The position numbers and the translations under genes are program-made. A DNA stretch of 63,298 bases, filler included, from Neolecta irregularis DAH-3 (lineage: Eukaryota), in assembly GCA_001929475.1 (NCBI GenBank). It is 4 parts of 4 records of this genome, joined end to end, with 100 filler letters (N's around TTAATTAATTAA, not from the genome) between each part and the next. Parts side by side here need not be neighbours in the genome. Positions count along the whole stretch, not along the records: positions 50,421 to 63,298 come from LXFE01000522.1; 3 more parts are not named here. One strand, written 5' to 3'. The notes beneath the pieces were generated by a model that was not told the DNA's origin, searched no databases, and was given only the letters and a program-made list of their open reading frames with translations. This document shows positions 6,545 to 63,298 of this stretch, piece by piece; within the stretch, counting starts at the first letter, position 1; each line of letters starts with the position of its first letter.

Positions 6545-6708
6545 AGCAAACTTGGGAAAGTGTACGGGAGACTCGGTCAAGCTTAAGCAAAATGATAACC
6601 AAAGTGAATTGCTATTGCTGCATGATATTTAATACAGGAGTCAGCATGCTACAGATGAATACCGGAGACTGCATGTTACAGATGGAGATATGCAGAAGAA
6701 TACAAGAT

Positions 6709-25804: not shown

Positions 25805-28800
25805 ATGCTGTTGCGGGGTTGGTTCGCCTTACCCAGTTTCACCTTTCTCTTTGCCATATATTACCCCACATTCGCTCATGATCCTAAAATTTCAAAAACA
25901 GAGTTTGATAATTTACCTTCTGGGTACGTGTACCTCGATGACAGCTCTGTATCCATTCTTCAATCAACTTTGCGCTGATTTAGGTTATTTTTTATCATGA
26001 TGGGGTTATGAGGAATGTGTATTATTCAACGGATGAAGGATCCTCGTGGGATCGTGTAAAAGGTGTACCGGAAGGAGAAGCTATTTCGTTTTACGAGCAT
26101 CCAAATGACAATAAGATGGTACGATTCACCTTTGGCCGTTTACGGACTCTAGGCATTTATCCTTGGCCCATCCCACACCCACTATAAAACTACAGACCAA
26201 GGAAAGTCATGGTCTAAATGGACTACGGAAGTACTCCCATCACTTACTATGCCTCTTGTATTCAATGCAGAGAAACCGGAATATATCCTATTTCTTGGCG
26301 AAACGTGTAAACCTGATTCTAGCTGGTTTGGCGAATCATGCAGGGATTCTGTATTTTAATTATTCGGATGTTGGTTGACGATAGGTTTATTATACGCAAA
26401 ATTCATTCTCTTCAGATCCAAAATTGATGCTTGAAAATGTTGGATCATGCACATTTGCCCAAACTTCAAAAGATTTCAAAAAGGCCTCTGCAGAATCAGT
26501 GTTTTGTATCCAACAAGATCAAAATTCAAACGATCAGTACCCTGAGAACCAGCGACTAGTCTCTTCTGATAACTGGTTCGTCGATATGACCGAAATTAAA
26601 GGAGACAATGGCCGAGTTTTGAGAGGATTAATTGGAATTGGATCTGTTCAAAAATTCCTCGTAGCAGCATCTAAATCCTCTGGAACAGATGAAATGGCTC
26701 TTTATGTTTCGGACGATGGAATAATTTGGGATAAAGCAGAATTTCCAAATAACCATGCAGGAATTTTCGAGGATGCGTTTACGATTCTTCAATCCAGACC
26801 TTTTAGCATTCAAGTCGATGTCGCTAGTGGATCATATTATCATTCCACTGGTACTTTTTTCAAAAGTAATTCCAATGGCACATATTTTTCGAAAAGCTTG
26901 GATCATACCAATCGGAATAATATGGGATTGGCAGATTTCGAACAAATTCAAAATATCGAGGGTATCATTTTGATGAATGTAGTCGACAATTGGAAAGAAA
27001 TTGAAGAAAATAAACACGCCGAAAAAGATTTGCAGAGTCGTATTTCTTTTGACGATGGTATGTATAATCCCTTTTACGTCTAATTAACTGGGAGGAAATA
27101 CATGGCAGTCACTTCGAGTAACGGAGTCGACTAAAAATAAAGAATGTTCTGAAAAAAGTCCGTGCGATTTACATTTATGGTCAGTCACAGCTCTCAAGAA
27201 CACTGGTACAATTTTCTCCAGTCCAGCACCTGGTATCGTTATGGGAGTTGGATCGATAGGCAAAGTCCTTTTACCTTATGAAAAATGCGACCTATTTGTT
27301 TCTTCTGATGCCGGAGAAACATGGCGCTTGGCTCGTCCGGGTGCGCACAAGTATGAATTTGGAGATCAAGGTAGTATCCTGGTTGCTATTCCAGACGGTG
27401 ATTCGACTGACACGCTCTACTATTCATTCAACTTTGGCAAGGACTGGCAAGTTCTCATATTATATACCTTTTGACTTTTTAGGGTATCCCTTGACCTTGG
27501 AACATCTATTCAACCGAAAATCCTCACAACCGTTCCCGACTCGACTTCAACAAAATTTACATTGCTCGGATCAGTAGGTGCCAAGACTTTTGTACTTGCC
27601 ATTGATTTCGATGGTGTTGTCGATCGCAAATGCAAGTTAAACGAAAAACATCCCAAGGATGGAGATTTTGAGAAATGGTACGCACGGGTTATTGACGGTC
27701 AACCAAAATGTCTCATGGGACATAAACAGTATTTCTGGAGAAAAAAGGCTGATAGCAATTGCTATGTTGGTGAGAAATACAAAGATCCTGTTCCAGAAGA
27801 AGAAGATTGTCCTTGCACCGACGACGATTATGAATGGTATGAGCAATGTTGGTGATTATTTCTCACAGTACCAGCGACTACAACTTTATTAAAAATTTTG
27901 AAGGAAAATGTGCTTCCGTCGGACCTGAACCTGTCAAAAAGGGGCAATGTAAAAACCCTGGCGATAAATATCTCGGGTTTAGTGGTTATCGCAAAATACC
28001 TGGAAATACTTGTAATTCAAAAAAGGGAATCACAAAAGATGACCCCGTGCAAAAGGACTGTGAAGATTGTCTGTTTTGATTACCTGATATGAACTTACAT
28101 TTGTAGCCCGTTTTCCGAGCGGAAGTGTTCAACATATCGAGAAAGAGTTTAAAGGTCGAATGAAAGATTATAAATATTTAGAACGATCAGACACGTCTAG
28201 TGGGGATGATGAGGCATGCAATCGTCTCGTCATTATCTAATACTTAGACTGTCATTTTGCAAACTAATCGTAATGAAATCTATCTGTCGCATGACCATGG
28301 TGGTACTTGGGAACAAGTCCTCAAAGACGAGGAAGTAGTCGCGATGATTCCCCATATATATTTCAAAGATTGGGTCTTTTTCCAAACTGCAAAACACGTA
28401 TACTACTCCAAGAACCGCGGAAAACGCATAGAAAAAATGAATATTCCTGGACCGCCTAATATCCTTTCAATCGATCTCTTTTCCTTTCACCCTAAACATA
28501 AAGACTGGCTTATTTACACTGCTGGAAAAAATTGCGCAGATTCCGAGAAAAAATGTCGTGCGGTGGCTCATTATACCAAAGATGCGGGAAACACTTGGAA
28601 GGAATTAAATGACTATATTCGAAACTGCATGTGGAGGCAAGACTCTAGATATCAGACTGAAGAAGCACTCGTCTTTTGTGAAAAGTATGAAAAAGATGAT
28701 CCGCAAACTCGAAATAATCCTCTAAACTTGATATCAACGGTGGACTTTTTCAAAGAAACAAATGAGCATCTTAAAGATATTGTTGGTTTTGCATTATTTG

Positions 28801-30705: not shown

Positions 30706-31068
30706 TGTCGATCTTGCTAGTTAAATTATGCAGGTTATCATTGATTGTTAATTGATATTATCTCGCTTCGGCAATCATCGGTCAATCATAACCATATCAA
30801 TTAATTGACATCTCTCATAATCATATCAGTCGATCATAGCCATACGAGTAAGTATCATGTACAATTCATCTCAGTCAATGAAAATATTCAATAATCAGCA
30901 GCAACGCCAGATGGGCCTCTAATCAAGTGAAATGAAAAATGAAAGGCAAAATGAAAAAAGAACCACGTACACCAACCAGATCACCAAGAAAAAAGAAAAA
31001 CAAATCACATATATCACATCTCCAAGAAGAAAGAAAAGAAATCACAGCACCAAGGAAGAATAAAGAAA

Positions 31069-31695
31069 TCACTTTACGACACGTCTCCACAACCTTTTTA
31101 TTCTACCACCTGAATGTTTTTGTTTTTGTCTCTGTCTTGATTCACATAAATCATCTGTATTGCGCATATTCTGTGGAGTTAGGGTGAGACGGAGTGTTTG
31201 TTCTCGAGAGGTGACCGAGGTGATTGTATATCGCCCGTCTGTTGATATTCTGCGGGATGATTCGTGGGGGAAGCCGTATTCGAGGACTTCATCGAACTTT
31301 TTGCGGGAGGTGTATATTTGAAGTTTGAGACGAACTTTTGGATCGTTGTAGTACTGTGGGAGTGAATCAGAACGGCGTCTGGGAGGAGCATTGTGGGACA
31401 AGGCAGGGATGAATGGCTCCGAGGCGGATCTTGGGGGCCATCTTTGTCTTTGCTTGTGGGGGCGGGCGGGATCAGAATTGAAGTCAAAGTCGAGATCGAG
31501 AGGGGAATGAGCGAGGGGAGAGATCAGGTCAACGAGGGAAGAGGGGATGTCGTCTGTGGTTGGGGCTTCTGAGACGAGACTGAGGCGGTTTGTAAAGTAG
31601 GCCTCGTCTGCGGCGTCGAGGACAATGTGCTGGCGGGGCAAGGCGGGATTGGGCGTGGGCGGCCTGTTGGTGGATGAGGGCGAAGCAGAGGCCAT
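31069..31695 (-). CDS. Conserved fungal hypothetical protein
   Basis: 208-aa ORF with YYNDPKVRLKL...KKFDEVLEYGFP and REQTLRLTLT, resembling an uncharacterised ascomycete family. Confidence 0.65.
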   Translation of the reverse strand: MASASPSSTNRPPTPNPALPRQHIVLDAADEAYFTNRLSLVSEAPTTDDIPSSLVDLISPLAHSPLDLDFDFNSDPARPHKQRQRWPPRSASEPFIPALSHNAPPRRRSDSLPQYYNDPKVRLKLQIYTSRKKFDEVLEYGFPHESSRRISTDGRYTITSVTSREQTLRLTLTPQNMRNTDDLCESRQRQKQKHSGGRIKRLWRRVVK

Positions 31696-31818: not shown

Positions 31819-31918
31819 NNNNNNNNNNNNNNNNNNNNNNNNNNNNNNNNNNNNNNNNNNNNTTAATTAATTAANNNNNNNNNNNNNNNNNNNNNNNNNN
31901 NNNNNNNNNNNNNNNNNN
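31819..31918. other. Assembly gap with artificial TTAATTAATTAA six-frame stop linker
   Basis: N run-TTAATTAATTAA-N run. Confidence 0.98.
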
Positions 31919-33146: not shown

Positions 33147-33489
33147 ATTGGATAAGTAGAAACTAGGGCGACCCATGTGGATTGAGGGGCGGAATTTGCG
33201 GCCAACAGAGAAAAAACTTTCACAAACAGCTTGCCCAATCCGTCGTCAGTGTTCTCTGGCTGGTTTCAGGACATGGATCAATTTCCTAATAGCGCGGTGT
33301 CGCAGAGCCTGCGTCGGTGTAGAAGCCTTGGCAGAGAGCTCGGGCAGCAGCGCGCAGGGAGGCGGTGAACGCGGAGCCTCAGTTCTGAGCGGCGGCGAAG
33401 AGTGGCAATTCAGCGGCGGCGGGTTCTGCAGTGGCGGGGTCGGGCAGGGAGGCCTTTGTGGGGACGAGGGCAACCATTGGAGAGGGGCG

Positions 33490-33609
33490 GAGGCAGGAGA
33501 GGAGGAGGCAGGAGAGGAGGAGGCAGGAGAGGAGGAGGCAGGAGAGGGGGAGGTAGGAGAGGGGGAGGCAGGAGAGGAGGAGGTAGGAGAGGGGGAGGTA
33601 GGAGAGGAG
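33490..33609 (+). repeat. 15-bp purine-rich minisatellite GAGG(C/T)AGGAGAGG(A/G)G x8
   Basis: Direct reading. Confidence 0.95.
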
Positions 33610-33752
33610 GAAGGCAGAATCTTACCCCACGCTGAACCCTCAAACCACACCGCCTCTGCCCGTATAAACCCCAGCTCCACCAAGCCTCCATCCGCGCCAG
33701 CTCCCCTTCGCCCTGAAACTCCAATTGATCACAATCCTAATAATCAATCGCG

Positions 33753-36791: not shown

Positions 36792-36891
36792 NNNNNNNNN
36801 NNNNNNNNNNNNNNNNNNNNNNNNNNNNNNNNNNNTTAATTAATTAANNNNNNNNNNNNNNNNNNNNNNNNNNNNNNNNNNNNNNNNNNNN
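36792..36891. other. Assembly gap with TTAATTAATTAA linker
   Basis: N run-linker-N run. Confidence 0.98.
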
Positions 36892-41908: not shown

Positions 41909-42335
41909 TAATGTTGCGAGTACTGTATAGGTATCAAGGCTTAATTGGCTGATAGAACGGCGAAGGTTGCGAGTTGGGACACAGTAAAACCGTGTAGAAA
42001 TTTGTGGTTGGTCCAAAGATGTCTGAAACATTGGTTCAAAGATGTCTGAAACATAGATCCAAAGAGAATCCATCTATTACACAATCTTTTAGAATCCTAG
42101 GTTAAGAATAGAATACGCAAAAGTCAATGAACGACTCGAACCACAAGTGCAAAAGTGTTCTGCTGCGCAACTTATGATTTCATTCGAAGAAAACTATTGG
42201 AGCTGTACGTTTTTTACAATAAAAGTATGTCATCGATAAGTATCTTTAAAGGAGTTCAATTAAACTGGGTGAAGCGAATCTGGAGGTTATAAAGTTGCCC
42301 GATTTTGTTTTACTACTGGGGCAAATTGTCCAAGT

Positions 42336-50320: not shown

Positions 50321-50420
50321 NNNNNNNNNNNNNNNNNNNNNNNNNNNNNNNNNNNNNNNNNNNNTTAATTAATTAANNNNNNNNNNNNNNNNNNNNNNNN
50401 NNNNNNNNNNNNNNNNNNNN
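50321..50420. other. Assembly gap with TTAATTAATTAA linker
   Basis: N run-linker-N run. Confidence 0.98.
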
Positions 50421-50693
50421 ACAGTCATATGTAATTCCTTGATTTCGTATGTATACAGTCATGTGTAATTAAATTAGATTTCGTATTTATACAGTCATGT
50501 GTAATTCCTTGATTTCGTATGTATAGTCATGTGTAATTCCTTGATTTCGTATGTATAGATGTGTAATTCCTTGATTTCTTGCAAGTCCTCGATTTCGTAT
50601 ATATAATCATGTGTAATTCCTTGATTTCTTGTAAGTCCTCGATTTCGTATGTATAGTCATGTAATTCCTTCATTTCGTACCAAGTCATGTGTA
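50421..50693 (+). repeat. AT-rich minisatellite, about 30-bp unit AGTCATGTGTAATTCCTTGATTTCGTATGTAT
   Basis: About 7-8 degenerate copies running into the gap. Confidence 0.92.
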
Positions 50694-50727
50694 CAAATAT
50701 TCATCGTTCAAATACAACCATCTCCAT

Positions 50728-51783
50728 ATGCCTCCTGCAAAACGAAGAAGAACTCTAGTACCCTTTGTCAGGCAATATACTCTGATCCCTAGAACCCAAC
50801 TCAATCCGCAAACTATCTAGATGTGACACCTAGACGTCGACAAACGGAAGGACACGTTTCGGATGGCTCGGACGATTCAGAAAGATTACCACACTCTAAA
50901 TCACAGTCTAATGTTGGGCTCGTCTGTATACTGCTGACAGTAGATCGCAGGTGCAAGATTACTAGTGCGCTATTCGTTGGCCAAGGAATTCACGCATACA
51001 CCCTTCACTCGAGACCAAGCCAACAGTACAAAAACCAACATCAATACAACTAACTCTCAGCTCTCCTGAAAGAAGTTGGCCTCCAGAGGAGTTTCAAAGC
51101 AGTCAAAGACGAAGCAAATAAAATCATGAAAGATGCCTTTGGAATGGAAATCGTCGAACTCGACCCGAAAGAACGATATTTATCTGCTCCTCAACAAAGA
51201 AAAGGTACCACCTTGTTTGCCAAAAACACTTATTGATTCAATAGTAGCTGCTAACTCGCACTCTCAAAAAACCCCAGGCGGAAAATCAGGCACTGTGAAA
51301 TTCTTTATTGCTAGAAGCATTCTTGCGCAGAGATTCAGGGATGCGGTGATTCCTGTAGACTCTGAAGCCGAAGATCTTGGAAAAATCTTCTTAATTGTAT
51401 CGTTGGTATATCTCAATAAAACCGAGATGCCAGAAGGTTATTATTCGACTTGAAATACAAAGTTGACTCGGATTTAGATATTCTCATTCGATATCTGGAT
51501 AAATTTATGCCAGAAGAAGGCGCCAAATTGTTTTTGAAGAATCGTATGATATCGGGGAAATACCTCGACTATCACAAAGACGTCAATGGAGATTTGATTT
51601 ATCATGTGGGACCTAAAGGAAAGGTATTGATTGATTCATCATGTGGGACCTAAAGGAAAGGCATTGATTGATTCGAAGCAAATGGTAGGATTGATGCATG
51701 AAATATATGGAGCATCTGCACCCGAAGATCTCGCGAAGCGCATCATGGATGCGATGGGCGTTGAAGAGCACATTAATGACTAA
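50728..51783 (+). CDS. NSE3: Smc5/6 complex MAGE-domain subunit Nse3
   Basis: RLLVRYSLAKE..TPFTRD, ANKIMKDAFGMEIVEL, GKIFLIVSLVYLN, YHVGPKG. Confidence 0.78.
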
Positions 51784-51830
51784 TTTATGGATTTGGTGTA
51801 CATTGCCTCATGTTTTATTCTTTAATTCTA

Positions 51831-52360
51831 TCAGATCTTTGTGTGCCAGTTTTCAGTATGGGTAACTTTACATGTGTGACAAGGGCAAATGAAAGCTTCA
51901 ATAGGCCTACCAATACTGGAAGATACTTCTGGATTTCGTTGAATAAACTTGGAAACCCATTTACGTCCAAGGGGAATATTGTCTCCATTCATAACCAAAA
52001 TTCTTGTCGCCATTTCTCTCATACGGGTATGTGAGGGAGGATATCCTTGCATATCTTGTTCAAGTATCCATTGAACAAGAAACTCCTCTTGTGGTGGTGT
52101 CAATCGCTGGTTATTTTGTTGGCTAATTGGACGATTTGTTAGGCCCTGGATTCGCTCGATTAGTGTAGATTGTATGATTCCATATGCGGCCGCTAGGGCT
52201 TTTTGCGAGGTAAATGTTCCCGAATCGAGATCTTCAATAGCTGATTGAATTATTCTTTCACGGATATCCATTTTAAAAGAGCTGGTGGTGGAGAAAAACC
52301 TTTATTCATTATATATATTATATATTTATATGGTGTCGGAATGGGGGGTGTCGGTACGTA
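51831..52360 (-). mobile_element. Truncated pogo/Fot1-like (Tc1-mariner superfamily) DNA transposon
   Basis: HTH-psq and CENP-B-type HTH (ALAAAYGI..STL..R, QRLTPPQEEFLVQWI, LGRKWVSKFIQRNP); no DDE domain; TIR-like end TACGTACCGACACC..CCGACACC. Confidence 0.88.
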
Positions 52361-52565
52361 CGCCGCTGAGCTTATTGTATCCCTCAAACGCATGGCAAGG
52401 CCCAGGCAAAGATATCAAGCTGGAACATTATAATATTTAAGGAATTGAGTATAGTACATAAAGGGAGCGGATAGTCATTCTCGTATCTAAAGCTAGAAAT
52501 AATCTTGAATTATTCCTACAGAGGTCTCACTCACACTTGGGTTACAACTCTCACTCTACCATAAA

Positions 52566-53625
52566 ATGTCTACGCAAATACCGCCTGGTGAAATTGGCTT
52601 TGGTCTCATGGGAATGACTTGGAGACCTACCCAGACTCCAGATGACCAGGCATTCGCAACTATGAAAGCTGCAATTGAACGCGGTGCGACGTTTTGGAAT
52701 TCCGGGGAATTTTACGGACAACCAGAACCTACATTGAATCTTCAACTACTCAGTCGATTCTTTACGAAATATCCAGAATATAAACAAAAGGTCTACTTGT
52801 CCGTAAAAGGGGCCGCAAACCTCGAGACTCTTCAACCTCAAGGGAAACCGCAAGAGGTTCGAAAGAGTGTGGAGAACATCATCAACGTCGTTGGTGGAAA
52901 ATACATTGATATGTTTGAATGTGCTAGAGTTGACAAGAGTGTGCATGTCTAGCCCTTTAGGAAATACTCTTATTCCGCAGTCCTATTGAAGAAACTATCG
53001 GTGAACTCGCCAAATTAGTCAAAGAAGGCAAGATTTCCGCGATATCGCTATCGGAATGTAATGCAGGGACCATTCGACGAGCGAGTAAAGTCCACAAGAT
53101 ATCTGCAGTTGAGATTGAATTCTCTTTATGGAGCACTGAAGCTCGAGATAATGGAGTTCTTGAAGCTTGCAAAGAACTAGATATTCCAGTCGTCGCTTAC
53201 AGGTTTCCTCTTCTTTCTTCTGGCTTGTGCAGGATTTATTTGATAGTCCCCTCGGACGAGGATTTCTCACAGGTAAAATCACAAAGTTTGAAGATATCCC
53301 AGAGGGCGATTTTCGTCGATATATGCCTCGATTCCAACCACAAATGTTTGACCAAAACATTAAACTTGTAGAGAAAATCACGACTTTGGCTCAAAAGAAA
53401 AATTGTACACCAGCTCAATTGGCCCTCGCCTGGATTCTTCATCAAGATCAATGGATAATTCCCATTCCAGGATGTACCACTCCAGAACGATTACATGAGA
53501 ATATGGACTCGTTAAAAATTTCCCTGTCAGAGAACGATATGAAAGAAATTGAAGAAGTTTTGGCTACTTTTCATGTAAAAGGTGAACGATATCCAAATAG
53601 TGCCAAAATACATCTCTGGGGTTGA
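52566..53625 (+). CDS. Aldo-keto reductase (pyridoxal reductase-like)
   Basis: IGFGLMGMTW, FWNSGEFYG, LSVKG, IDMFECARVD, SPLGRGFLTG, TPAQLALAWI, IPIPG. Confidence 0.93.
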
Positions 53626-53647
53626 ATATCTCTAGCCATCCAGCCAG

Positions 53648-53761
53648 CAAAACTTCTTCAATTTCTTTCATATCGTTCTCTGACAGGGAAATTTTTAACG
53701 AGTCCATATTCTCATGTAATCGTTCTGGAGTGGTGCATCCTGGAATGGGAATTATCCATTG
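53648..53761 (-). repeat. Inverted duplication of AKR coding sequence 53449-53562
   Basis: 114-bp reverse-complement match with one mismatch. Confidence 0.95.
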
Positions 53762-54300
53762 CTGTGCTATGCAATATCTCGTTCCCTTTAATGCTTCAGT
53801 GGATTAGATGACCAGGACCTCGCGATACACTAAGCCGTTATTCCTATCCTTTTCACAGTGAAAGTAGCATTGCAAGCCATGCAATAGTAAGGTCAAATAT
53901 ATATCCAGCAAAAGCGCCAGTTAGATCTTTAAATTAAAGATGTTGAATCTACAGTAATGTAGAATTGACATCGTAATAACATCTACAGCTGTTTTCTACA
54001 GCATTGGAAACACTTGATGGTTGACTTGTAGAATCCATGAATTCAGGGCATACTTCATTATAGAACCATTCAAGGAGTCGTACTGCCGTTTAAAATAATA
54101 AAAAGTCATACAATCGAGGGATTGTTCAAGGGTTTGTGTGAATTTCAATTATAATATATGGCTGGACAAGGGCCAACAGAGAAGGTACATTTACAAAAGA
54201 TATGATTATTTTTTGGGTCGAATTCGAGGCACAAGTGGATGTCGTAATGCTGTAGTCATGTATAGTGGTAACCCTCAAAATAAAATTTCCCGACCTTGAC

Positions 54301-55318
54301 ATGACTTTATATCATATGGACCTTTCAGCTTCTGTACAGGGCCTTCGAGAGCAACTCGAAATGCTCAATCTTTCGACTAAAGGACATAAAGATGTTTTAA
54401 GACGACGCCTTCGTGAAGCGAGAAAGAAATCTCAAAAGCATGTTCATTTCAGGACTGATGGTCTTGTTGAGGTTATTGATGACAATTCGCCTAGGGCAAT
54501 CAGAAAGCACCAACCGAATGGCTTGGATTTGAAGCAATTGTGAGTGAATAAAATTGTGGTAATTCTTTGGTTGACTTGAAGCTGAGACGATATCTTTTGT
54601 TTATGGATTTCGAAGCCACTTGTATTGAGGGACATGGCCGTAATTTCAAACACGAAATCATCGAGTTTCCGTGTTTGATATATGATATTGAGCAGCAAGT
54701 AATCATCGACGAGTTTAAAACACATGTACGACCTTTGGAAAATCCAATACTGTCAGATTTTTGCATTCAGCTCACGAATATCCAACAGGTATGTTTCAAC
54801 CGGGACAACTGACCTTGTAGAGCGACGTAGACCAAGCTCCTACATTTTGTGAAGCTTTGGAGCTGTTTGAAAGATTCTTGGACAAGCATGAATCCTTGTT
54901 CGACCCTTCAATATTCTCTGTGCCTGTATCGCAGAGGTCACGGCAGAGGAAATGGTCTGGAATTGAGCGCAATTGGGCATTTGCCACTGATGGTCGATGG
55001 GATATTGAGTTGTTTCTTATTCAGCAAATGGGCATTGAGAAATTACCATACTATTTTTGTGGACCATACGTTGATGTTCGAGGGCTGTTTTCGGATTTTC
55101 TGCGCGAAAAACGTTGTTCCTTGGTCAATATGCTTAGGAAATGGGACTTGAAATTTGAAGGAACTGAGCATTGTGGGCGAGATGACGCATTCAACCTATC
55201 AAGAATAGTCTCTCGGCTCATTCAACAAGGATGCATTGTAGAGGCCAATCGGTGGATCCAACCTGACAAGACCCGGGGATGGATAATACCACGAAGATAT
55301 CCGCGTTATAAAGAATAA
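54301..55318 (+). CDS. ERI1: ERI1-like DEDDh 3'-5' exoribonuclease with SAP domain
   Basis: SAP LREQLEMLNLSTKGHKDVLRRRL; MDFEATC, EIIEFP, VRP..NPILSDFC.QLT.I.Q, TDGRWD, FEGTEHCGRDDA. Confidence 0.9.
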
Positions 55319-55385
55319 ATACAAAGCAAAAATGGCCCGCCAGATTAATACATATACCAAACTCTATACCTGTGAATGAAGTGCA

Positions 55386-56138
55386 TTACTCGTCACTCTC
55401 AAGAATTCCGTCCACCAGCTCTTGTAGCGGTTCGAATTCTTTCATTTCGACCAATCTACATATATTGGCAGGGAGTAGTAAAGGGAAATACTTGAATTCA
55501 CGACAAAAGAGGAAAAAATGCTTGAAGCTGGTGTTGAGATGGGGTTCGAGGCCCAAGGCGGTGATTACGGCGAAGTGGGCGCAGTAGATATGGCTATAGA
55601 CGCGGCTCATGCGCCTGCACATTGTTTTGACAATACTCAAAAAGGTCGGAGGGAAAGAGACGCCTGGCTTGGAGGGAAAGATGCGGTCGTCGTCGACGAT
55701 GATTTGGATGTAGCGGAGGAGGTTCTCGATATATTCCGAGGCGGGCAGTTTTGTGGGTTTCTTATACTTGTTGTTGTCCTGATAGTAGTACTCGTAGCTG
55801 GGATGAGCAGATGAACTGGGAATATCGTACCGTGGGCCTGCATTCATAATGGGACACGTCTCGGGGCCACAGACTTCTGCAACAGTGGCATAGAGCATGT
55901 TTGCATGGTTGTAAAAGTCGACGACTGGTGGTTAATAACAAAAGCTCCACAGTTCCTCACCATTCACCGCGAGCCATTCATCGACATCTTCACCCTCAGG
56001 CAACTGCACTGCCCGGCTTAAATTGCCTGGACCAAGGGAATACCGCGCAAATTCGCGTAGACGTGACGGCGCAGATCCCGGAACAGCCAGAGCAGGGCGG
56101 AATACGCGTGGGCGGTTGTGAAGTGCAAAGAAGGACAT
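55386..56138 (-). CDS. MOB1: MOB kinase activator Mob1
   Basis: VQLPEGEDVDEWLAVN, VDFYN, CPIMNAGPRY, RVYSHIYCAHF, LEPHLNTSFKHF. Confidence 0.92.
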
Positions 56139-56362
56139 GGAGTTGCAGTAACAGAACGAATATGGTGGAGCATCACACCAAGTACTCGCAGACACCCTAT
56201 ACTCCGAGATCATGCTCCAGAACTATATGCCAAACTGTGGGGATGTGCTCCAAAACTACTTGCTCAACTATATAAAAACGTTGGTTGGACACGGGACTTT
56301 GTTCCTTCCTCACCACCGACAAATCGCCCTACGCCGCCTGCTTCCTTTACCCTGCTGGTTCA

Positions 56363-57109
56363 ATGTTGCGCCGCGCCTTTGCACTTTCAGCTCGCGCTCG
56401 CTCATTTGTGCAGACAGAAATCACCCCGAATCCACATGCGCTCAAGTTTGTACCCGGAACTCAAATTCTGCCCCCTCAATCGCCGTCCGTTCAGTTTCTC
56501 GCCAGTAGAGAAACTGTTTCTTCGCCTCTTGCGCGCAAATTATTTGCCGTCGACGGAGTGCGTCCCTCGTGTGATTCTGTCGTGACCTTCAGGTGCGCTC
56601 CATCTTCTATGGCCCAGACTTTATCACCGTTGAAAAGCAGCCAGAGTCACACTGGGCCCATCTCAAACCAGAGATTTTTAGCGTCATTATGGAGTACATT
56701 TCATCGGGCCTCCCCATCCTCGCCCAGGTTGACCAGCCTATGGATACTCGCGTCGAAGACACTGACTCAGACGTAGTCGCTATGATCAAAGAGCTGCTCG
56801 ATACAAGAATTAGGCCTGCTATACAAGGTATCTCACAGCCCCATATCCGTGCCCATGATTCTAGAGGACGGAGGTGACATCGAGTACCGCGGCTTTGAGA
56901 ACGGTTACGTCAAGCTCAAGCTTCGCGGCGCTTGTCGGTCCTGCGAATCCAGCTCTGTTACTCTGAGAAATGGAATCGAGAGTATGTTAATGCATTATAT
57001 ACCCGATGTTCAGGGTGTGGAGCAAGTCTTGGATCCCGAAGAAGAGATCGCACTCAAGGAATTTGAAAAATTTGAGAGGGAGAAAGAGGCTAAAGCTCAA
57101 GCCAGGTAA
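56363..57109 (+). CDS. NFU1: Mitochondrial Fe-S carrier Nfu1
   Basis: [61 protein letters not shown]. Confidence 0.96.
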
Positions 57110-57397
57110 GCCAACAAGTAATTAACTTGTAGCACTTGCATTTGTTTAGGGAGGTTTGTGTTTGTTTGTCACTGCAACGCTAGTCGCGGACAATTTCTAA
57201 TACTAGTTGACGGAAATAGAAGTAGTCCGTGTGTGTAAGCTGTGATCTGCAGCAGAGGCTGCCGCAACCAGAAACCCAACCTTGTCCTTGTCTCCTTTTT
57301 TGTTCAGGAGAACGGCATAGACATCTCCATTTGCCGCAGTCTGACTAATGGTCGCTTAAGCCGTTATATCAGGTCAAGCCAGATCTGTGGAACCACA

Positions 57398-58853
57398 ATG
57401 TCTGGTTTCGTTCTATATCTTATATTCATTCTACCTGCTTACTTTCGTTCAACTCATGCCTTTTACTGTCTCGATCGCCTTAATCCTCTCGAATTCTCAC
57501 AAGCAGTAGTTGTCGAATGTTCGCCGCCGTCGCGTAAACGCAACATTACTCCAAGTCCCGACAATTCTATCTCTGCAGGCCTTAAAAATGTCCTCAAATT
57601 CCCCGCTGCAAATATCAAGACACTGCCCGTTCTACCCCAGCCAGACGGCAATGCAAAATCCATGATCCATATGGATGTCTCCTGTCACGATGGAGATAAT
57701 GCACTATGTGCAAATGTCAAATCGGCTCTAATTAAAACGGCCTCAACAATATCTCAGGAATATCTTCATGTTCGCCAAATTTTAATTCTAATAGGTAATA
57801 GCGTTCTCACAACCGCTCATGGTCAATGTAACCTTGCTCAGCTTTTGCGATCGTTTGGGAATTTGCAATGCAAACTTGGATATTATAACCAGCTTAGGTG
57901 AGAATCTCGCATAGATATACTGATATCAAAAAGGTTCTGCGGCACCTGCTCGTACCATTCCACTAGAGGACGAAGACAATGTTATCCGGTTTTATCCTCA
58001 GGCGCTAATCAAACAATTCAACCTAACGTCTGCCTTACTTTACGGCCCATATGATATCCAGGCCATATTTAATTCGGATTCCGAGTTCTCTTTCGATGAC
58101 TCGATTACAACAAACCAGTCTGATTTCCGTTACGTTTCTCTCCATGAATTAATCCATGGTCTTGGATTCACCAGCGCATGGGATGACTACGTTAATACGG
58201 CCGATCCTGTCAGCATTACCCCACATCTTTTGTTTGTATACCCAGATCCATCAAAACATAATGTCCATTTTGCTGGGTTTATAGAAAACGCATTTGATCG
58301 GTTTATACAGACGCCTACTGGCTCTTTATCTCAAAAAGCAGCCCAAATGAACCATGATTTTGGTCCTTCGACGGATTTCATTAGCGATGACGCATTGCTT
58401 CGAAGTTATCAGAACTCCCATGCATGGGACATCGGAAAAGATATACTGGTAGAAGCTTCGACCGCAAATACATTCAAATTCGATGGCAAAATCGTGCTTG
58501 AGACGAGTATCAAATTTAAAGCAGGATCTAGTGTTTCACATGTTAGTGCTGATCTCTATTCGTCTACCCAAGATTTCCTGATGCGGCACGTACAACAGCA
58601 AGGATCTACTCTCGAAGAATGTATACAAAAGCATGGTGATCCAGTCTACGGTGCATTCGGTCCTGGCCTCCGGGCAGTACTAGGGAATCTCGGATATCGA
58701 GTTCGCGGAGGAATCCCAACAAATGATCCTTCAAGGAAGGATTCGACCCTGGATTCGTCCAAAATCACACTTAAAGCATCTAGTCGATCTGATGCACAAA
58801 GAGGAGCCAGTTGGGTTACCTTGTTTCTTGGCCTTTGGCTGCTGTTGTTATAA
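57398..58853 (+). CDS. Secreted, probably GPI-anchored zincin-like protein (HEXXH)
   Basis: Signal peptide, GSAAPAR, FYPQALIKQ, DIQAIFNS, HELIHGLGF at 58143, GSSVSHV, hydrophobic C-terminus. Confidence 0.75.
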
Positions 58854-59694
58854 TCAATCTTGGTTTTTTAGACCTATCGCCCTTTTCCTGGAATGGGTGT
58901 AGTATAATTTCTACTGTTAATATTATTTTCTATCTCACAATACGTTGATACAATAAAATCATAAAACTCGCCGGCCATCGGAAGAGTTCCGGATCTTCCC
59001 GACCCTTGTTCATTTGCCATAAAAACTCGGCAAAAAGTTACCCTGACTTTCCCTCCACCAAGTTTCCCCTCTAAGTAAAAACATGGTATTCCTATTCCAT
59101 CTTGTCTGCTGCTAATTTTGAGCCCGAATCTAAAGGTGACGTCACCGCTGGTGCAAAACTATTCAAAGTAATAAAATAAACAGCTTTTTTGACAATTTTT
59201 GACCACCTCAGCAACGATGTCAACTTTGCCACACATGCAAAAAAGGCGAGGCACATAAAGTTGGTCCGAATTTGCATGGACTCTTTGGTCGAAAGTATTC
59301 AAGCCACATCTTGTGAAAGCGATTAATCGATCAGAACCGGACAAGCTAAAGGTTATTCATATACTGAGGCCAATATATCGAAAGCGGTCGTATGGAACGA
59401 AGACACTTTATTCGAATAGTATCTTCCATACCACTTGAATTTTCTCATTCCTAGTCTCTTGAATCCGAAAAAATACATTCCTGGAACGAAAATGGTTTTT
59501 GCCGGATTCAAGAAACCCCAGGATCGTCACGATGTCATAGCGTTCCTCAAGGAGGAAACGGCATAGATCTACGGTACAAGGCAACATGGAAAATCTCCTC
59601 TCAATATTAATCATAATAATACAATATGCTTTGAAATAACGCCCCTTAGCCTTATCTCCAATACCAAAACTCCTATTAAAGAATTTCAGTGTAT

Positions 59695-61997
59695 TCACTT
59701 CAATCCAAAACCCTGGCTACCGTCGACAGCGTCTCGGAATTTTGATTCAAATTTTCCAAGTGTACGATAACGATAAAGACAGATTTGATTAAAGCACGTG
59801 TGCGCAATCGGAAGGCGATTGCTGTCATCCCCGAGTATAGATATCTTGAACATCATATTCGCACTGCCGGTTGCTGGTATCCGATCTGATCCCGTGATAA
59901 AACTCAGGATTTTTCTTTGATATGCTGCTTCGACATTGGACCAAAACGACCAAAACCAAGAGATGACACTCTCTTTTTCCGGGTTGAGCGTGCCGTCATA
60001 TGTCGCGACGGCACACAAATCCAAAACGTTCAGTGGATCTGGAGAACCGATGACCAAGGCCTGAATCTCTTCCGGGCGAAACAGCGATAATGCGTTCCCT
60101 CCACATACATGATAGAATCCGCGTTTGAACGGTTCGAATTGTTTGGCAATCGAGGTATCCAATAGGAATACAACATATTTCTCCGCATAGTCTTCCTGTC
60201 AACCGAAAGTCATAAATGGAAATACCGCGGCGGTTCTCATTTGTTACAGGTATCGATTCTCCACCTGGACATAACGGATGTCGTTCAACCATTTCAAAGA
60301 CTTCCAGTTCTCCGATAAAATCGCGACAGAACATGGTTTCAACATCGCCTTCATATTCAAGTAATTGTTTCAGACCTCTGGCCAACCCAGGTCTTATATC
60401 AAGCAAATCATCTAATGAACAAGGCTGCCCCAACAGCTTTTTGTACATCGCCAAAGGTAGCGGAATATCCAGGATGGTCGAATTGTACATTGCCAATCCA
60501 AGCACCAATCCGAGCAAATAAAAATTATCACTGACTTCGAATGTGAATGGATTGAACCAACAATAGCAGGCATCTTCGTCACGCGTAAACATTCCTGAAG
60601 ATAAGAAAACCATAGTGAAAGATCATCATACCATACTGTGGATCGAAGATTTGTCGGCATAACAAAAGAAACCACTCCTTTCGTAATCCACCTGCATCAA
60701 CACCATCTTCTCCGATAAACTCAATCCTCAATCCCTTCTTGATTTCCATTTCGTTTCTCCCAAGCTGGGCGAGTGAATCTTCGATGATACACGATCTTCT
60801 GACCTTGAGAAGGAGGTGTGGATGAACTGCCCTTCGTTGAAAAAGTGTAGTAAAGAAGGCCTGAAATCAAATGATCTATATAGAAGCAGAAATATACCTC
60901 GCGAGCCTTCAATTCCATCTGACGTTTGGCGTCATATTCCATTATTGAGATTTTGGAGCCAATCGACAAAAGAAAAGGATATTGACAAAAAGAGAATTTC
61001 TGCAATCTCTGTTCCCAGTTGGCAAAATCGTTGATGAGATCCACGTAGTCTACAAGGGTATTATAGAACGAGTTGACAGGTATGATGGGACTCTGGAGAT
61101 TCGCAGCAACTAAATGTCAATCAATGATGATGTATGCAAGTACAAAAGAGAGCAATTGTTCGAGCTGCACAGCGAATTTTCCAGTCGCATGAATAGCTAA
61201 GAGAGGCTTCATCTGATCTTCCAGAAAGATGACGAGAAAGACGCGCAGAGATGAATCCATTCAACAAGTCCAGGCGCGTTTGGAAGATATCTGCAGGAAG
61301 CTTCGCGAACCAGCTGACGAGAAGATGATGCGATTGATTATCGAGATTACTCAAGTATCCACATAAACGCTTCAAAATCGACTGTGCTGTCCGACTTGAT
61401 CGATTCATTAACAAATGGTTTTCAAAAATAATTACTAGCACACGAACATCTGATGGTTTCCGAAGATCACGGGTAGGACGACGAAGAAGGGCGTCGATGG
61501 AAACTAAAAGCGGTCTGGTTAGAGGCTCGGGTATGAGTCTGTAGAATTCGCGCACATCCTCCAACGAGATTCCCGGATCGTCAGGAGAAAGTTCTTGATC
61601 CTTAAATATAAGAATTTCAGAATTACAGGCTTATACATTGAGGAAGCTCGAGTTCAGGGTATCTAGGGACGAAAAAGACCGCAGAATTAGATCACGTATA
61701 CACGTGTCATCCCCTGTGTTTTGGAATATCGTCAAATGTTCCTTCAAGCTGTTCAAAGAGAGTGCCTGGGTCATTCCTGAATCTATTTTCAATACTAGAA
61801 ATATGGTGAGTCGGACATACGGTGTTTGTTTGATTTGATATCGTTGACTGTTGAGCATATCGTACCTGCCATCAATTTGATCCATCAAAGTCTGTGAATA
61901 TACATTTAAAACATGAGATACCAGTTGGGAATCGCAGACTGGAATCGCAGCAAAAACAACGCCCAATAACGAGACCCGTCCTTGTCTCAGGTTCCAT
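59695..61997 (-). CDS. HUL4: HECT E3 ubiquitin ligase (Hul4/Mug30-like)
   Basis: FSFCQYPFLLSIGSK, GVDAGGLRKEWF, LGLAMYNSTILD, FITGSDRIP, RLPIAHTCFNQ. Confidence 0.88.
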
Positions 61998-62108
61998 TAA
62001 ATACAAGCGTGGTTTTCCCGCGGATTGCAGTGTGCCACGCGTGTTGCATACAAAACTCGGATGGTGGTTAAACGTGATCCGATAGCGTCACCTCACTCAA
62101 AATTCAGC

Positions 62109-62931
62109 ATGATCCAGCGGTCACCTGCAGAAATTTCGTATTTATCGACGCTTCTAGCTTCTGGCCAGAGACCAGACTCGCGAAAATCTTCAACATTTCG
62201 GCCGGTGACAATCCAAACGTCTGTGCTTCCTGCCGCTTTTGGGTCGAGTAGAGTTTCAGGACCAGCAGGCGAGATCATAGTCGGAATAAAAGCGCAAGTC
62301 GCCCCAGTTGGTGAATATCTGGTCTCCGTCGAAGTGTTTGTGTCGGGGAACTACTACATACTTATATTGTAGGGACGGCCATAAGGATGACGATCCCTTA
62401 CCGCTTCTCGTGAATGAGACTTTGCAACGACATATTCGTGCTTGTCTACCTCCAAAGACCCTTCAAATAACGACAAAATCTGCCTGGGTTGTCTATATAG
62501 ATGTCTATATTACTTCTTTCGATTCTCACCCACTCGAATTAGCATCACTTGCTGCTGTTCTAGCCCTCAGAGACACACGCTTACCTCAAACCATAATAGA
62601 AGATGACGAATACACGATATATGACGATTGGGAATCGGCCACTCTGATTCCAGGTATCGAGAACTTGGGGGCCCTCTCCATTGCCAATTGCTATCAATCT
62701 TTGATATTCTTCGATGCTTCCGCGGAAGAGGAGTTGGTATCGGATTTCCGGATAGCGGTCGGTGTCAATGGTCAGGGCTCTATAATTCTCACTCAATCGC
62801 TCCAGAGCCGTCGAGCTTTGAGGGCACCAAACATATCAAAAGTTTTAGAAAATGCTCGGGAAATCGCCTGCGAAATAGGTCATGTTGCAAAAGTTGGAGG
62901 TGGGGAGGGGACTGGCCTCTGGGCGAATTAG
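62109..62931 (+). CDS. RRP42: Exosome RNase PH-like subunit Rrp42
   Basis: SPAEISYL, RPDSRK..FRP, GSSRV, IVGIKAQV, WVVYIDV..S.DSHPL, FFDAS.EEE. Confidence 0.82.
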
Positions 62932-63063
62932 TCAAGTATCTTTCTTTACTCTTTCGTCAAAGGCAGGGTGCCCAGTATAAGCCTGATTACAATGCAATCC
63001 AATTATAGTTATATTCACTTATCGCCATTTTCCAATACAACCGAATCTTTGGAATATATTTAG

Positions 63064-63180
63064 CGCGCGTTTGGTACGCACCACATTTCATAAAATATGG
63101 CTTTTTAAAAAATTGGAATTTCAGGCGCGCGTTTGGTGCGCACCACACTTTATAAAACAATTAGGCGCCTGTTTGGTGCG
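63064..63180 (+). repeat. Three spaced copies of GCG(C/T)GTTTGGT(A/G)CG-like motif
   Basis: Copies near 63064, 63127 and 63165; the first two extend about 30 bp (..CACCACA(T/C)TT(C/T)ATAAAA). Confidence 0.7.
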
Positions 63181-63298
63181 GAGTGACATAACGTGGGAAA
63201 ATAACCCACTGTTAGATTCTCAGCTTGGACAGAGAGGTATGCGACAACGCACAAGAAGCAGCTATTTAATATAGTTCATTCATTTATAGCAGTCACAC

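Follow-up and report, generated by a model that had tools for sequence, protein, structure and literature searches.

The MAGE/Nse3 gene of Neolecta irregularis DAH-3 lies in a joined stretch of DNA of 63,298 nt (hereafter the window, along which all positions are counted), and a 37-bp tandem duplication is found within it, close to its 3′ end. A 37-nt segment lying across the two copies (51624-51660) is already used as an ordinary intron by the public annotation. Considering the structure of the repeat, the deposited protein and the contigs of two runs, we regard it as likely that this intron was born through tandem duplication of an exon segment with an AG|GY site, in line with the model of Rogers (1989). 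The spliced product equals the one-copy form and is colinear with 25 homologues, and removal of the segment is thus seen to restore the coding sequence as it stood before the duplication.

Tandem duplication and the putative new intron

The features of the duplication and of the intron are as follows.

51594..51599, plus strand: TTGATT microhomology, the likely site of slippage or misalignment
51601..51637, plus strand: copy 1, of which the first 23 nt close exon 6 and the other 14 nt open the new intron
51638..51674, plus strand: copy 2, of which the first 23 nt close the new intron and the other 14 nt open exon 7
51624..51660, plus strand: new intron, 37 nt, GT..AG, wholly copied exon sequence, whose removal gives the deposited protein P0001 exactly
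51625, plus strand: T at donor position +2, with C at 51662 as its partner in copy 2
51662, plus strand: C in copy 2, second base of exon 7, in codon GCA for Ala236; the form carried by the contig of run X2
51650..51654, plus strand: branch-like CTAAA, read from the sequence, a putative branch point
51651..51653, plus strand: TAA, at which by frame reading translation would stop with the 37 nt left in

Tandem Repeats Finder reported the row 51594-51674 with a period of 37, 2.2 copies, 95% matches, no indels and a score of 148, and direct comparison of the two copies gave 36 equal bases out of 37. The sole difference is T at 51625 versus C at 51662, so that copy 1 reads AAG|GT and copy 2 reads AAG|GC. 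The original prediction, made from the DNA alone, had described just such a 37-bp tandem duplication with this one-base difference, and both its coordinates and its description were right. TTGATT is found directly upstream of copy 1 and again towards the end of either copy (51631-51636 and 51668-51673); the repeat edges therefore share microhomology. Among the 15 Tandem Repeats Finder rows of the whole window, a period of 37 occurred in this row only, and the 24-base core of the unit had no further occurrence in the window on either strand. A head-to-tail match of 36 out of 37 bases within 63 kb cannot, in our judgement and without recourse to a shuffle, be put down to chance. The site lies 1.2 kb inside the last contig of the window, which extends from 50421 to 63298 and measures 12,878 nt.

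When the 37 nt were left in place, the frame 51420..51653 stopped at the TAA after nine altered residues, with the loss of the last 40 residues, which agrees with the predicted frameshift before the C-terminus. When 51624-51660 was removed, the frame ran to the stop codon at 51781-51783 and the product was P0001 exactly. The mapping guided by P0001 gave exactly one exon-intron solution in the window, with six introns, and the exact restoration claimed earlier is borne out by the fact that P0001 maps in this way only.

The donor at 51624 lies in copy 1 and the acceptor AG at 51659-51660 in copy 2, both coming from the AG|GY site of the unit. The first 14 nt of the intron copy the start of exon 7, and the remaining 23 nt copy the end of exon 6. 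With the intron divided at that point, 36 of its 37 bases match the flanking exons, and the head-to-tail repeat period equals the intron length, as Rogers' model has it. The other introns of this gene measure 35, 40, 35, 40 and 41 nt, and the 37 nt of the new one are indeed of local intron size, as had been supposed. The donors of introns 1 to 5 are GTAC, GTAT, GTAC, GTAC and GTTA, and that of the new intron is GTAT. The branch-like motifs of introns 1 to 5, a few bases before the acceptor, are CTGAT, CTGAC, CTAAC, TTGAT and TTGAC. The predicted branch-like CTAAA was found where it had been placed, with its fourth base 7 nt before the last base of the intron, and the CTAAC of intron 3 has equal spacing. 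Another AG, at 51654-51655, is nearer to CTAAA and abuts it, and according to the X2 contig is not the acceptor used. With GT..AG ends, local length and a branch-like motif near the acceptor, the segment has the features of a Neolecta-type intron. The mean intron of the Neolecta genome is 42 bp, with 4.3 introns per gene, as given in the supplement of PMC5309816.

A window-wide harvest of introns with a single solution yielded 26 candidates, about 11 of them credible by eye (30-42 nt, YTRAY-like motif near the acceptor). As loose context only, these introns resemble the new one in having AAG and GAG acceptors and, in one case, a CTGAA-type motif. The duplication signature was sought in 32 introns, namely the new intron, six other annotated or alternative introns of the gene and 25 of the 26 harvested candidates; 51026-51088 was excluded, being a false version of intron 3 (51026-51060), which transcripts confirm. 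The signature was absent from all 31 other introns, and the next best value was 0.46, in a doubtful 63-nt candidate.

Contigs from two runs

Two runs of one study, X1 (sample S1, with all of the sampled words) and X2 (sample S2, with 47% of them), were compared as contigs over 50700-51830. The recorded type of both is 'DNA?', which is a guess, and no run on record as RNA turned up in the search. In X1, one contig with a word depth of 442.8 spans the whole of 50700-51830 with no differing letters, no gaps and no joints, and both copies are present in it. Logan graphs are built on 31-base words. The duplicated form requires 30 words of 31 bases that are absent from both one-copy forms, and no 31-base word is repeated in it; because these junction-specific words are needed and none is repeated, a word-graph contig with both copies implies that the reads contain the junction. 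Six further words of 31 bases are peculiar to the one-copy form. The 31-base word evidence weighs strongly against an assembler artefact.

The X2 contig omits 51026-51060, 51205-51244 and 51437-51477 exactly, each of them GT..AG. Because three neighbouring introns are skipped in this exact manner, we infer that X2 is spliced-RNA (cDNA-like) data. A second X2 contig (word depth 220.1, compared with 309.4 for the contig of the upstream exons) runs from 51600 straight to 51638, so that 37 nt are missing, and 24 letters at the joint are ambiguous. The joint has 25 equivalent placements with one identical product, the one-copy C form, and among them only 51623|51661 is GT..AG on the plus strand. 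One further placement, the cut at +12, is CT..AC, an intron of the minus strand, and was rejected as unfit for a plus-strand gene. Beyond the joint the contig reads the C of copy 2, which is what splicing at 51623|51661 would have to give, and the X2 pieces had no differing letters from the window over about 780 bases. A joint that fits the 51623/51661 junction asked for in the original prediction is present in a contig, although the sample differs from that of X1. Two outcomes had been named as grounds for dropping that prediction, a single copy in the reads and retention of the 37 nt in transcripts; at the contig level neither was seen, X1 having both copies and X2 one. X2 also has a 12-base gap at 51761-51772, which could be a 3′-end effect.

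Gene, protein and gene model

P0001 is the hypothetical MAGE-domain protein NEOLI_003600 of N. irregularis DAH-3, and it is 100% identical to the translation of exon 5. Its residues 54-236 match Pfam MAGE (PF01454) with an E-value of 5.8e-25 and 88.7 bits, compared with a curated cut-off of 25; exon translations taken singly match the same family at E-values of 6e-07 and 0.023. A full HMMER scan with P0001 over 1.84 billion representatives gave 132 proteins at E ≤ 0.001, the closest homologue other than P0001 itself being 33% identical. No close paralogue of P0001 is on record, the sole protein at E ≤ 1e-30 being P0001, and a word-based protein search with 868 candidates likewise returned only P0001 at E ≤ 1e-5; the homologues were reached by the full HMMER scan.

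The segment of P0001 that follows the junction was examined in these homologues. The first 43 non-self homologues include 41 whose matched stretch crosses the junction (residues 235|236) and reaches at least residue 254. Twenty-five of the 43, whose match reaches residue 264 or beyond, were aligned; P0038 qualified and was overlooked, and 17 shorter or split rows were left out. No indel occurs at the junction in this alignment, and conservation extends into the tail. A profile of 26 sequences (P0001 and the 25 homologues) matched solved MAGE-G1/NSE3 chains at E-values of 1.2e-27 to 2.5e-22, among them MAGE-G1 (5hvq_D, 1.2e-27), the human NSE3 homologue (9lwi_E, 1.7e-27) and yeast Nse3 (7qcd_E, 2.5e-22), and in this profile match the residues beyond the junction pair with the end of the solved MAGE-G1 domain. 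P0001 alone had only a weak likeness to solved chains (E 0.08-0.27). Because of the Pfam MAGE match and the profile matches to solved MAGE-G1, NSE3 and Nse3 chains, the gene is assigned on sequence similarity to the Nse3-type MAGE genes, in agreement with the NSE3 identity first given to it. As a subunit of the Smc5/6 complex, Nse3 would be expected to bind Nse1 and Nse4; it is essential in yeasts.

The gene model comprises the following features in addition to the new intron.

50728..51783, plus strand: MAGE/Nse3 coding region in seven exons, deposited protein P0001 (NEOLI_003600), 275 aa
50758..50792, plus strand: intron 1, 35 nt, of the deposited model, outside the cover of the X2 contigs
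50926..50965, plus strand: intron 2, 40 nt, of the deposited model, in conflict with the X2 contig
51026..51060, plus strand: intron 3, 35 nt, GT..AG, skipped by the X2 contig
51205..51244, plus strand: intron 4, 40 nt, GT..AG, skipped by the X2 contig
51437..51477, plus strand: intron 5, 41 nt, GT..AG, skipped by the X2 contig
51661..51780, plus strand: exon 7, the last 40 residues, conserved in homologues and aligning to the end of the solved MAGE-G1 domain

The X2 contig is unbroken over 50944-51025 and starts exactly after the AG at 50943, which conflicts with the deposited intron 2. An exon start at 50944 (acceptor 50943|50944) fits both this contig and a conserved motif of the homologues better than the deposited intron does, and an alternative intron 2 ending at 50943 could start at 50913 or 50922. 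The public model of intron 2 is probably wrong, or else the site is alternatively spliced.

An AT-rich tandem array with periods of 32, 50 and 80 and 88% matches occupies 50423-50679, right where the contig begins, and stops about 50 bases short of the ATG; it may account for the contig ending at this point. Immediately downstream of the Nse3 gene and tail to tail with it, a minus-strand open reading frame (51831-52301) has a Tc5/pogo-type transposase DNA-binding domain (PF03221, E 1.3e-10).

In the window, linkers of 44 N, a 12-base word with stops in all frames and another 44 N stand at 31819-31918, 36792-36891 and 50321-50420, and a run of ten N at 131-140. Because separate contigs are joined at the linkers, gene order across them is meaningless. 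Other repeats of the window were considered as introns and set aside. The 27-bp tandem duplications at 6631-6684 (85%) and 26842-26896 (82%) lie in open plus-strand frames and repeat nine residues in frame, and the repeats at 42008-42065 (period 23) and 31013-31072 (period 28), whose periods are not divisible by three, look intergenic. Small exon duplications may be a recurrent type of mutation here, and only the one that is out of frame would have to be spliced. A G-rich stretch at 33489-33617 consists of 8.5 copies of a 15-bp unit with 92% matches.

Discussion

Considering these results, we propose the following scenario for the origin of the intron at 51624-51660. A 37-bp piece of the penultimate and last coding stretches would have been duplicated in tandem, probably by slippage or misalignment at the TTGATT microhomology. 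Through the AG|GY site of the unit, a GT from copy 1 (51624) and an AG from copy 2 (51660) would then bound a 37-nt segment of normal local intron size, in which CTAAA would stand at the usual distance from the acceptor. Removal of this segment by the spliceosome would yield the same mRNA and protein as before the duplication.

The event appears to be young, because intron bases outside the splice signals are free to drift and yet 36 of the 37 bases are identical. A very recent gain had been proposed from the start; its interpretation as an intron gain is supported, and its recency is inferred from the identity of the copies. The direction of the change at 51625/51662 can be put in two ways. 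If the ancestor carried GCA, a perfect duplication would have offered GC..AG only, and a C-to-T change in copy 1 would have upgraded a weak GC donor. Starting from a perfect duplication of the C form, 3 of the 222 single substitutions give a canonical 37-nt GT..AG intron with the mRNA unchanged, and T at 51625 is one of them. If the ancestor carried GTA (Val), a canonical intron would have existed at once, and a later T-to-C change in copy 2 would have given Ala and removed the duplicate donor at the start of the new exon. The residues at the junction column of the 25 homologues (V 14, M 3, A 2, I 2, T 2, K 1 and L 1), at about 30% identity, may lean weakly towards the GTA ancestor.

Several points weigh against intron birth, and some of them feed particular rivals. 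CTAAA departs from YTRAY-type motifs in that its last letter is not Y, and a pyrimidine tract is absent. No relative closer than 33% identity was found, and it is the internal repeat by itself that gives the polarity, that is, gain. The evidence from the runs consists of contigs, which drop rare variants and cannot give the share of retained transcripts; X2 carries its 'DNA?' label by guess, its cDNA status being read from the skipped introns; and X1 is possibly the assembly's own data, in which case it controls for the assembler and not for the reads. X1 and X2 are moreover different samples (S1 and S2) with different organism labels, and the RNA could stem from a haplotype without the duplication. 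DNA and RNA were taken from wild-collected fruiting bodies, in the plural, according to PMC5309816. Between X2 contigs a single base is missing at 51539 (51538/51540); this gap might reflect a variant of the X2 sample and may mark a second haplotype, and a truncated protein would keep nearly the whole Pfam MAGE match (model positions 1-202 of 207), so that a truncating allele might be tolerated. From the sampling, the gap and the retained domain one could argue for a real but unspliced frameshift allele, polymorphic or heterozygous, with the one-copy transcript coming from a haplotype or individual that lacks the duplication. Such a diverged haplotype has left no sign in the X2 bases that match the window throughout. 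The sole difference between the copies makes a canonical donor, an outcome open to only those few substitutions if it arose by chance under a C-form ancestor, and the segment is as long as local introns are, is bounded by GT and AG and has a branch-like motif at the customary distance from the acceptor. The 40 residues that would be lost are conserved in homologues and are part of the solved MAGE domain. No one-copy joint was seen in X1, although contigs can hide a minor allele. We hold the unspliced allele to be distinctly unlikely.

It is very improbable that the genome is one-copy and that the assembly wrote two alleles, or an unmerged overlap, in tandem. The X1 contig, assembled independently, has both copies without a difference, the junction-specific words would all have to be accounted for, and the site is far inside its contig, away from the joins; against this, the window is made up of short draft contigs with linkers between them, built from short reads with Velvet (PMC5309816), the copies differ by one base, as two alleles might, and the same reads may underlie both assemblies, which leaves room for an artefact at the read level. 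A further explanation keeps both copies in the mRNA and lets the one-copy cDNA be made in the tube, by a reverse transcriptase jumping between direct repeats. Template switching is known to occur between such repeats, and the skipped segment is flanked by an exact direct repeat of 24 and 12 bases; contigs, too, are unable to prove the retained form absent. Artefacts of this type are usually a minority, whereas here the one-copy form is an assembled contig with a word depth of about the same order as that of the upstream exons, no two-copy X2 contig was seen, and the deposited annotation uses the intron as well. We give this explanation hardly any weight, and intron birth by tandem duplication remains the reading that we prefer.

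The origin of new spliceosomal introns is an old question that is still open, and few recently gained introns have an identified source sequence, as PMC4974935 and PMC3629103 describe the field. The Neolecta case is unusually clean, with one duplication, one intron and each intron base traceable to a base of a flanking exon. In this lineage introns are very short, and a new one does not seem to need a pyrimidine tract or long spacer already in place. The case offers a directly testable system for studies of intron origin, and its interest lies in this cleanness and not in the novelty of the mechanism. A bolder proposal, which we advance as rather doubtful, is that the intron stands within one substitution of its birth and that the change at donor position +2 records selection on a newborn splice site, be it the upgrade of GC to GT or the removal of a duplicate donor. 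On this proposal, and in a genome with introns of about 42 nt on average, slippage duplications of about 35-45 bp with an AG|GY site would be complete introns at once, and exon duplications could be an ongoing and possibly steady source of introns that helps to explain the intron richness of Neolecta (4.3 per gene).

Comparison with known systems

A literature search, covering mostly titles and the openings of abstracts, found no paper on the origin of the intron at this locus or on duplication-born introns in Neolecta. In the part of PMC8476143 that was available, the Neolecta genome is mentioned as a data source only, and PMC5309816 describes an assembly of 14.5 Mb with an N50 of 16 kb and 44% GC, made from Illumina reads with Velvet, with gene models from MAKER. 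The mechanism, which the original prediction had called rarely observed, is less rare than that wording implies, and four published cases can be set beside the present one: ATP2A1, two fission-yeast genes and a potato gene.

The intron of vertebrate ATP2A1 arose from a tandem duplication (Hellsten et al., 2011, PMC3265369; described in PMC4974935). As in Neolecta, an exon segment with an AG|GT-type site was duplicated, one copy gave the donor and the other the acceptor, and mRNA and protein were unchanged. The Neolecta unit differs in being only 37 bp, equal to one whole intron. Its copies still agree at 36 of 37 bases, whereas an age of nearly half a billion years is given for the ATP2A1 event, and copy 2 has AGGC in Neolecta and not AGGT. 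ATP2A1 has also been re-enacted at the bench, whereas the Neolecta case is known from sequence and contigs.

In fission yeasts, the introns of SPOG_01682 and SOCG_00815 are tandem exon repeats of 24 nt with an AGGC proto-splice site (Zhu & Niu, 2013, PMC3629103), and definite sources were given there for only 2 of 62 gained introns. These cases are like that of Neolecta in belonging to Taphrinomycotina and in having short exon-derived tandem repeats, AGGC in the unit, imperfect copies and support from a spliced transcript, which in Neolecta is a cDNA-like contig from another sample than the DNA contig. As described, the fission-yeast introns span two or four of the 24-nt units in arrays, and one expressed sequence tag disagreed with the annotated intron, whereas in Neolecta a single clean duplication of one unit corresponds to one intron and the donor copy now reads AGGT.

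The RdRp gene of potato gained an intron by tandem duplication (Ma, Lan & Niu, 2016, PMC4974935), and there, as in Neolecta, a recent duplication made a new intron whose source can still be identified. The duplicated piece in potato crossed an old intron-exon boundary, and most of the splice signals were inherited; the bases of the Neolecta intron, in contrast, were all formerly exon. Introner-like elements and transposon-derived introns are also sources of young introns in fungi, as cited in PMC4974935 and PMC3629103. These are multi-copy mobile insertions, whereas the Neolecta unit occurs in the window at its two tandem places only and is a copy of the exon sequence on either side. The mechanism itself is known, and the Neolecta intron is a further example of a sparsely documented kind.
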